The notes below the pieces were generated by a model, which was given only the letters and a program-made list of their open reading frames with translations, did no database searches and had not been told where the DNA came from. DNA of 4,124 nucleotides, from the NCBI RefSeq assembly GCF_003334785.1, contig NZ_QOWV01000049.1. One strand, 5' to 3'. Of this stretch, positions 1,670 to 2,771 are shown piece after piece (positions within the stretch are counted from its first letter, which is position 1; the number at the start of each line of letters is the position of its first letter). The position numbers and the translations under genes were made by a program. Source of the DNA: Escherichia coli (GTDB lineage Bacteria; Pseudomonadota; Gammaproteobacteria; Enterobacterales; Enterobacteriaceae).

Positions 1670-2771
1670 CCAGCGTCTGGCAGAGCTGGCTGACAGAGCT
1701 CCAGCTGTAACTTCAATGTCATCACTTGGGGAAGTTGGCGATACTGATTTATTTAGTGCTGTTATGGGGGCATACAAGACTCAATTGCAGAATTCAACTT
1801 ATACCCCACCTTTAGGTACTATAACTTCAGCAGACGAACAACTACTTTCAAAAACAAGCACGCCACAAGATGCTTTAATCAAGCCCACAGAGAAGTTTGG
1901 GCAATGGCTTACGAACAATATTGCCACCGAGTGGACTGATTCGGGTACAAGTAGCAATCAAGTTAATCCACTGATAAAAATGAAAAATATTGGTGATAAA
2001 ACTATGGTCGCTGCAGAGGGTATTTGGATTACTTATACATCTGCTAGAGTTATTACTTCAGGAACTGGGAGTTCTATATTTGGTAAATTCATAGATTTGA
2101 CGACAAGTGCTATTTCAACACTAAATGCCTTACTTGAGGCCTTAGCGCCCCCCGTATACTTTCTGTTACTACTGCTGTTTTGTGCAGGATTCTCTTTATC
2201 TATTTATTTACCATTTATTCCGTTTATTTTCTGGATGACTGGGATTGGTAACTGGGTCATTAGTGTATTAATCGGATGTACAGCTGGACCTCTGTGGGGG
2301 GCAACTCATCTAGGCACATCACAGGACAGAGGGAGTCGTGCTGCCTACGGTTATATATATTTAATAGACAGCATGATAAGACCACCTATCATGGTTTTCG
2401 GATTCTTTTTTGCCTCTGTAGCCATTATAGCAATAGGTACTATATTAAACTTTTTATTCGGTGCTGCACTGACCAATGTACAAATAAGTTCATTTACAGG
2501 TATATTTAGCCTCGCAGGTTTCTTACTTCTTTATGCTAGAAGTTGCACAACAATTGTAGCCGCAGCATTTGCCTTACAAGCATACCTCCCAGACCATGTA
2601 ATTAATTTCCTAGGAGGACGTGATGGTGTAAACACGCTTGGGAATATGGCTGGTTCAATAAAAGAGATTTTTGCTGGCAGCAATAGAAACATAAGACACG
2701 CACCTAATATAAGAGAGGAGCAAATTAAAAGGATGAATAACGACAACAATAAGGATGGAATAAAGGGATAA
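1542..2771 (+). CDS. Hypothetical polytopic membrane protein (409-codon ORF); S/T-rich N-terminal region, 4-6 TM helices, charged Asn/Lys-rich C-terminal tail; true start uncertain
   Basis: Longest ORF in the window, stop TAA 2769-2771. Hydrophobic segments at about residues 205-232, 234-254, 281-310 and 316-348. The listed TTG 1542 start lies inside the lipoprotein signal-peptide coding region of another frame. In-frame ATGs at 1620, 1716 and 1764 have no SD. A +1 shift at CTT-TGC (1655-1660) would fuse it to the lipobox ORF (1514) into a 418-aa product. Confidence 0.6.
   Translation: MPPFFWLAATPLLRILLFRVTTVLPLMWRLTLVAWYQTFATANQRLAELADRAPAVTSMSSLGEVGDTDLFSAVMGAYKTQLQNSTYTPPLGTITSADEQLLSKTSTPQDALIKPTEKFGQWLTNNIATEWTDSGTSSNQVNPLIKMKNIGDKTMVAAEGIWITYTSARVITSGTGSSIFGKFIDLTTSAISTLNALLEALAPPVYFLLLLLFCAGFSLSIYLPFIPFIFWMTGIGNWVISVLIGCTAGPLWGATHLGTSQDRGSRAAYGYIYLIDSMIRPPIMVFGFFFASVAIIAIGTILNFLFGAALTNVQISSFTGIFSLAGFLLLYARSCTTIVAAAFALQAYLPDHVINFLGGRDGVNTLGNMAGSIKEIFAGSNRNIRHAPNIREEQIKRMNNDNNKDGIKG

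Follow-up and report, generated by a model that had tools for sequence, protein, structure and literature searches.

The 4,124 nucleotides of Escherichia coli DNA analysed here (the window) are, by gene content and alignments, a decayed piece of the transfer region of an IncI-complex plasmid, bounded by insertion sequences. In order, the window holds the end of an IS66-family element, the 3' part of traF, a histidine-phosphatase gene, the first 39 codons of traH, a deletion joint, the 3' part of traY, excA, hha and the end of an IS3-family element. Megablast searches against plasmids and complete E. coli genomes gave 99.5% identity between positions 133-1631 and traF (3' part), histidine phosphatase and traH (5' part) of IncI-complex plasmids, and again 99.5% identity between positions 1630-4050 and traY (3' part), excA, hha and a hypothetical gene of the same plasmids.

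The left edge (1-133, minus strand) is a terminal segment of an ISEc43-like element of the IS66 family. E. coli chromosomes contain IS66-family copies that match it at 100%, and next to these copies the IS66 accessory genes and an ISEc43 family transposase are annotated. This element truncates traF. Homology to the gene begins at 133, and the remaining 3' fragment (133-475, plus strand), which has 99+% identity to annotated IncI traF, comprises the C-terminal 113 codons of the IncI1 conjugal transfer protein TraF. It is followed on the same strand by an intact gene of 194 aa (535-1119; WP_000977522.1) that occupies the place of traG in the IncI1 tra region, and whose product scores 295 bits with NF011945 (cut-off 142) and is annotated in IncI plasmids as 'histidine phosphatase family protein'. 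The 5' fragment of traH (1514-1631, plus strand), delimited by alignment to intact traH, by annotation and by the list of open reading frames, consists of 39 codons with a lipoprotein signal (LAGC); beyond them its frame, no longer in register, stays open until a stop codon at 1669, which makes an ORF of 51 aa. At the other end of the window, plasmid annotation and alignment identify the 5' part of a hypothetical gene of 285 nt (3869-4050, plus strand), which is cut by an IS insertion. Homology to IncI plasmids ends at 4050, and the last 74 nt (4051-4124, minus strand) are the end of an IS3-family element; in UMNF18 the match past 4050 runs on through an annotated IS3 family transposase. The database annotation gives 'IS3 family' only, and the element is presumably IS629-like, to judge by its terminal sequence. 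An Rfam scan of the window (E<=0.1) returned one sub-threshold chance match (mir-219, 24 bits against a gathering score of 54.5), and a repeat search found short chance-level repeats, none of them flanking the joint or the composition step described below.

Among the genes of the remnant, excA is intact and hha nearly so. The excA gene (2847-3461, plus strand; 204 aa, WP_000578649.1) starts 76 nt past the stop codon of traY and is annotated as excA in 200+ plasmids that carry the same allele as the window. Its product scores 234 bits with NF033891 (surf_exc_IncI1; cut-off 100) and has one strong N-terminal hydrophobic segment; the N-terminal two-thirds of the protein are variable, the C-terminal ~35 aa are conserved, and a Pfam search of ExcA found no domains. 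A terminator-like hairpin 3' of excA (3482-3501, plus strand), detected by a terminator scan and conserved in all I1 alleles, is the sole convincing regulatory signal. The scan gave 6 promoter-like sites where 8.0 are expected, hence no enrichment; a consensus promoter-like match lies upstream of excA at 2788-2816. In alignments, the hha module (3535-3830, plus strand) stands where R64-type and B-type plasmids have an unrelated segment, so that the hha-like gene, which an earlier model-made reading of the sequence (the original prediction) had counted as horizontally acquired, does belong to a replaceable block. The hha coding sequence itself (3559-3753, plus strand) encodes 64 aa and ends five residues short of the 69-aa plasmid copy (W65*); its product scores 94.1 bits with the Hha/YmoA family model NF008191 (cut-off 90).

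The deletion joint and the 409-aa reading frame

The joint between traH and traY was placed at 1630-1631 by a three-way alignment and R64 coordinates. The traH sequence extends to ...GATGTGGCGGTTA and that of traY begins TAACGCTTG..., and only the TA at 1630-1631 is common to both, a microhomology of 2 bp. Relative to R64, ~19.7 kb are absent: the 3' end of traH, traI through traX, and the first 1023 nt of traY. Codon 39 of traH is thereby linked out of frame to nucleotide 1024 of traY (traH is read in frame 2 mod 3, traY in frame 0 mod 3). Because the two genes are joined out of frame, the 409-aa ORF that spans them (1542-2771, with a TTG start at 1542), made up of 30 out-of-frame traH codons (1542-1631) and TraY residues 344-722, is an artefactual pseudogene reading. 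The traY remnant proper (1632-2771, plus strand; residues 344-722 and the stop codon), 99.5% identical to annotated traY from 1627/1630 on, is a pseudogene fragment of a member of the DotA/TraY family, and the proper annotation of the ORF is a traH'::'traY pseudogene. The remnant scores 281.9 bits with TIGR04346 (DotA_TraY; cut-off 100) and matches only profile positions 322-656 of 656; it is not a full-length DotA/TraY protein, since residues 1-343 are gone owing to the joint. In the hydropathy profile of an intact traY allele, a signal at residues 3-21 and TM helices within 73-149 all fall in the part that is missing here. The native N-terminal module of the original prediction thus does not exist: ORF codons 1-30 are traH DNA read in the wrong frame, and at least 341 N-terminal residues of TraY are missing.

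An assembly chimera at the joint is unlikely. The independent metagenome contig QZMB01001618.1 carries the same joint, matches the window at 100% throughout the aligned stretch (328-3300), and also has the window's private T (a SNP) at 1639. To the left of 328 the sequence of this contig, unlike that of the window, is internal to an ISCro1-like IS66 transposase gene. An identical joint in a different left context indicates that the joint is reproducible and has been inherited through further rearrangement. The joint was found in no record of PLSDB or of the complete E. coli genomes, and an exact-pattern scan of the genome_contigs collection (one genome per species) yielded none. The involvement of the shufflon Rci was also considered and rejected: inspection by eye of both deletion end points for an sfx-like core (GTGCCAA...) gave weak matches (5-6 of 7) that are out of register with the crossovers.

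The composition step and the mosaic boundary in traY

Counted in 60-nt intervals, the GC content is 0.55 at 1561-1620, 0.567 at 1621-1680 and 0.533 at 1681-1740, followed by 0.35 at 1741-1800 and 0.383 at 1801-1860. These values reproduce exactly those of the original prediction, and the junction that it placed at about 1740 is borne out by the maximum-likelihood two-state change point within 1133-2771, which falls at 1741, nucleotide 1139 of traY. Measured with 180-nt flanks, the local step amounts to 0.156, within the top 1.25% of positions in the window. A step of this size belongs to the top 1.0% in a 49-kb stretch of R64, where 10 separate places reach it, and it is reached somewhere in 227 of 500 mononucleotide shuffles of the window. 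The local GC step taken alone is unremarkable; the lasting change of regime is significant. In the undeleted plasmid pACN001-F, the maximum-likelihood change points of traY alone and of traX-traY-excA both fall at the equivalent of traY nucleotide 1139, with GC passing from 0.49 to 0.39 (LLR 10.8-20.4) and a likelihood ratio that none of 300 shuffles reaches. The same change point in an undeleted plasmid indicates that the step is intrinsic to intact traY and was not made by the deletion.

The block of ~55% GC that precedes the step is only ~240 nt long (1500-1740) and consists of the signal-peptide region of traH (0.54) and nucleotides 1024-1138 of traY (0.55). It looks like a host-like leader because the deletion sets the GC-rich start of traH beside this segment of traY. 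The genes further upstream in the window have a GC content of 0.40-0.50, and in intact traY the 500 nt before the step reach only 45%; the side that had been called host-like is plasmid backbone and not host DNA. Past the step, GC is 0.39 in the 3' part of traY, 0.385 in excA and 0.40 in hha. The further claim that the sequence stays AT-rich to the end of the window holds roughly (0.385-0.40), with the exception of local peaks of up to 0.54 and of the terminal 74 nt, the IS end, at 0.53.

The position of the step was compared with the divergence of traY/excA alleles. Allele A is that of the window and is intact in pACN001-F; allele B is that of pDR162-CEF-B and allele C that of an R64-type plasmid; alleles D and E come from two IncK2/Z plasmids, and three further I1 plasmids were also compared, including a fourth I1 allele (L012/L013). 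The ExcA of allele C differs from R64's WP_000644796.1, which is carried by p2-Ec-BERN-042 and psh13D178-3. Allele alignments, together with the change point, define a transition zone of ~75 nt (1727-1801). From 1727 onward, A and C mismatch at every third base; the first mismatch between A and B after the joint position is at 1787; and the L012/L013 allele is C-like to ~1759, B-like for ~30 nt and then unique. At least four I1 traY/excA alleles, carried on near-identical upstream DNA, all diverge within this zone. Since the first A/B mismatch follows the change point (1741) by 46 nt, the latter marks the divergence zone and not the crossover point itself.

Within the zone begins a variable entry-exclusion specificity cassette (1787-3363, plus strand), delimited by A/B identity, synonymous divergence (pS) and plasmid counts, which takes in codons ~395-722 of traY, the intergenic region and the first ~172 codons of excA. 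Over traX and traY nucleotides 1-1183, alleles A and B share 99% identity. From 1787 on, the rest of traY is 68% identical, the spacer 66% and the 5' four-fifths of excA 43%; identity is back above 90% from ~3364, inside excA. In a per-codon analysis of the same pair, pS is 0-0.10 up to codon 390 and then 0.74-0.82, as high as between IncI1 and IncK2/Z backbones. For non-synonymous divergence (pN), the four-helix membrane core (residues ~514-600) gives values of 0.03-0.06, and residues ~391-510 reach 0.2-0.46. Sakuma and colleagues reportedly mapped specificity, in 2013, to an internal and a C-terminal variable segment of TraY, which fits the two regions of high pN seen here.

In PLSDB, the 155 nt just upstream of the break are found in 1371 plasmids (562 of them at >=99%) and the cassette (1787-3363) in 252. 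Alleles A, B, C and L012/L013 each couple a distinct 3' part of traY with a distinct excA, and their traX and traY nucleotides 1-1183 are 95-99% identical. The two gene parts vary together as a block, as in an IncI TraY-ExcA exclusion-specificity module. Protein alignment shows that all traY alleles are homologous along their full length, with an almost invariant membrane core. IncI1 plasmids whose other tra genes are 98-99% identical have been described as carrying six variants of ExcA and nine of TraY (PMC8004404). The junction, read by the original prediction as a recombination boundary, therefore coincides with a genuine mosaic boundary, and alternative C-terminal cassettes on the same leader do exist in other plasmids, each traY variant with its own excA; the locus is not one conserved gene devoid of alternative C-terminal variants.

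Entry exclusion and the competing explanations

Entry exclusion, as described in three papers that cite Sakuma et al. 2013, Plasmid 69:138 (PMC4416936, PMC8923210, PMC11493245), works through ExcA in the recipient cell, whose target is TraY in the donor; two plasmids whose ExcA-TraY pairs differ can each transfer into cells that harbour the other. Two of these papers attribute to the same work the exclusion of cognate-TraY plasmids by ExcA, for R64 and R621a (Sakuma et al. 2013, as cited in PMC4416936, PMC11493245). A published table (PMC4288162) lists for pESBL of E. coli O104:H4 the layout Hha/YmoA (210 nt)-ExcA (615 nt)-TraY, which equals the layout of the allele in the window.

Given what was observed here (the gene identities, the joint, the mosaic boundaries, the allele counts and the jump in synonymous divergence), we consider it very probable that the GC step is the 5' edge of an IncI-complex entry-exclusion specificity module, lying in a deleted, IS-flanked remnant of the transfer region. 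The module would be a block of ~1.6 kb (~1787-3363; traY nucleotide ~1185 to excA nucleotide ~517), in which the last third of traY is joined by most of excA. TraY, an inner-membrane protein of the DotA/TraY family, is part of the type IVB conjugation apparatus and serves as the target of exclusion on the donor side; ExcA is the exclusion protein on the recipient side. Several alleles of this module, probably anciently diverged and AT-richer than the backbone, would be moved between nearly identical backbones by homologous recombination in the conserved flanks; since an ExcA has to fit the TraY segments cognate to it, each would travel whole. A new exclusion type would be advantageous, since the plasmid could then enter cells that already hold a relative, and selection for new exclusion specificity may thus underlie the exchange of cassettes.

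Three other explanations of the step deserve consideration. It might reflect, without any recombination, the amino-acid and codon bias of a hydrophobic membrane domain in one vertically inherited gene. The 3' half of traY does encode TM helices rich in F, I and L, and GC1 falls from 0.537 to 0.421 across the step. Alleles D and E, moreover, which differ from A over the entire gene, shift in the same direction, their GC3 being lower in the 3' half (0.645 to 0.50), and do so although neither shows a break in identity with its own backbone; the lower GC may in part be a long-standing, family-wide property of the region and not the trace of a single import. However, the largest change is at synonymous third positions (GC3 from 0.458 to 0.31), with GC2 nearly unchanged (0.476 to 0.45), and the drop starts inside the hydrophilic domain, ~380 nt or ~140 codons before the first C-terminal TM helix (residue 518), both of which argue that the shift is not simply amino-acid bias. 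Furthermore, plasmids whose backbones are 99% identical pass, within 60 nt of the step, from a synonymous divergence of ~0 to saturated values, which fall back inside excA, and we regard bias as a very improbable sole cause. Even less credit can be given to the idea that the deletion joint, or a chimeric assembly, produced the step by putting unrelated DNAs side by side. A true joint of non-adjacent DNA does lie 110 nt upstream (1630/1631) and exaggerates the apparent host-like leader, but both its flanks have 54-55% GC, the step sits within uninterrupted traY at the same position in undeleted plasmids, and the joint recurs in the metagenome contig with a different left context.

The original prediction had compared the architecture with that of polymorphic toxin/immunity loci, where a conserved N-terminus for delivery is followed by a variable toxic C-terminus and a downstream immunity gene, and where cassettes are exchanged. 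The formal likeness is real: there is a conserved 5' and a swappable 3' gene part, a co-varying gene for a small membrane protein, and alternative cassettes elsewhere; recombination in conserved flanks and a small cognate downstream gene are likewise features of CdiA-CT/CdiI and Rhs-CT/RhsI. As an account of this locus it is nevertheless hardly conceivable. Homology to DotA/TraY extends over the whole variable part, the nearly invariant four-helix membrane core included; a Pfam search found no toxin or pre-toxin domain, and indeed no domain at all, in the 409-aa ORF; and the downstream gene is excA according to the curated model NF033891. The N-terminus of the ORF is out-of-frame traH and not a delivery domain, and in intact plasmids the N-terminal part is the membrane/periplasmic region of TraY. 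The pre-toxin motif and delivery repeats of the Cdi and Rhs systems are lacking as well. Here the variable part is a structural membrane protein, whose partner blocks the entry of DNA and neutralises no toxin, and the papers cited above place the TraY-ExcA pair under entry exclusion (PMC4416936, PMC11493245).

Relatives of the locus and the fate of the remnant

The entry-exclusion reading makes this locus a relative of the TraY-ExcA systems of IncI1/IncI-gamma plasmids (R64, R621a, ColIb-P9, pESBL). It has the same genes in the same order, with 99.5% identity to IncI traY-excA-hha; excA lies directly 3' of traY, and a variable 3' part of traY and a variable excA sit on a conserved backbone. 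It differs from working IncI systems in that the first 343 codons of traY are missing, traH to traX are deleted and the whole is bounded by insertion sequences. R64 has a different cassette, with an ExcA of 220 aa (WP_000644796.1), and is without hha at this place. Outside the IncI group, the closest functional analogues are TraG-TraS of F-like plasmids and TraG-Eex of SXT/R391 ICEs and IncC plasmids, in which an inner-membrane protein of the recipient recognises a variable segment of a donor mating-channel protein encoded by an adjacent gene; these pairs also co-vary and define exclusion groups (PMC11493245, PMC8923210). They belong, however, to unrelated families (VirB6-like TraG as opposed to DotA/TraY) and to type IVA/F instead of type IVB/I systems. 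The remnant also matches the C-terminal part of NF033886, the equivalog model of the DotA protein of Legionella and Coxiella type IVB secretion, at 111 bits, below the cut-off of 500; it derives from the plasmid conjugation paralogue, truncated here, and not from an effector-secretion DotA.

The phenomenon is thus already known: this is an ordinary boundary of an IncI traY-excA exclusion cassette and not a toxin/immunity locus, and beyond correct annotation it matters little. The composition step inside the ORF had rightly pointed to a recombination boundary; the biology behind it is plasmid entry exclusion. The type of traY/excA cassette is a helpful marker for the epidemiology of IncI plasmids, because plasmids with different cassettes can enter cells carrying a relative. 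The orphan excA may still exclude plasmids of the allele A type and, although it lies in a non-conjugative remnant, could, if expressed, lower the uptake of pESBL-type resistance plasmids by the strain. That the IS-bounded remnant has been kept for this reason instead of merely decaying, with the mating apparatus lost and the intact excA (together with hha) serving as a stand-alone barrier against pESBL-type IncI1 plasmids, seems to us rather unlikely.

The sole loose end with some novelty lies in a second traH::traY deletion, found in 22 PLSDB plasmids of the p2-Ec-BERN-042 type. Its crossover in traH is at the same TA (1630-1631), it ends 606 nt further upstream in traY (nucleotide ~418 compared with ~1024), and excA is intact in both types of deletion. 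The shared TA and the intact excA hint at a hot spot for deletions in traH or at selection, acting repeatedly, for 'exclusion without transfer'.

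Deletion joints between traH and traY

An identical traH crossover, ...GATGTGGCGGTTA|, is found in two distinct traH::traY deletions, at 1630-1631 of the window and at 7470-7500 of L001, the locus that shares it. In the window, this crossover is fused to traY at nucleotide ~1024. The second deletion joins it to traY at nucleotide ~418 and is present in 22 PLSDB plasmids, all of the p2-Ec-BERN-042 type and carrying excA of the R64 type. The left arm of the window is 99.5-99.6% identical to intact plasmids, versus 99.1-99.2% to the p2-Ec-BERN-042-type lineage. The common crossover may reflect a hot spot, a nested deletion or coincidence.

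The truncated traH (1514-1669) retains the start, the LAGC lipobox and the sequence upstream of the gene. As predicted from the sequence, its product would be a 51-residue lipoprotein-like peptide, the last 12 residues of which are foreign.

Composition of the exclusion module and replacement of the hha module

In the IncK2/Z plasmid loci L007 and L008, GC3 of traY falls from ~0.645 in codons 1-380 to ~0.50 in the remaining codons, and that of excA is 0.45-0.47; an AT-richer exclusion module is therefore common across the I-complex.

Downstream, the hha module (~3535-3830) is a replacement block, flanked on one side by the conserved excA terminator and on the other by a conserved downstream region. 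R64-type and B-type (pDR162-CEF-B allele) plasmids carry an unrelated segment at the same place, with an opposite-strand open reading frame annotated as 'HEAT repeat'. Between the window and pACN001-F, an undeleted plasmid with the same traY/excA allele, SNPs are several times denser across the hha module than across traY-excA. Relative to the 69-residue pACN001-F copy, the window hha (3559-3768) carries T33A, T39A and a premature stop, W65* (TGG to TAG at 3751-3753).

Borders of the IncI fragment and the gene at the traG position

An IS66-family (ISEc43-like) end (1-133) borders the IncI fragment on one side and truncates traF; on the other side, an IS3-family end (4051-4124) cuts short a hypothetical gene of 285 nt that begins at 3869. 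In L010, a metagenome contig (QZMB01001618.1) with the same traH::traY joint as the window, the sequence left of window position 328 (L010 1-297) is not an IS end but lies inside an ISCro1-like IS66 transposase gene, the result of either another deletion or a collapse of IS66 copies during assembly.

Because the gene at 535-1119 scores 295 bits (cut-off 142) against the LPS core heptose(II)-phosphate phosphatase model (PmrG/Ais-like), its sequence suggests an envelope-modifying enzyme within the conjugation operon. Within the IncI1 tra region, this gene sits at the traG position.
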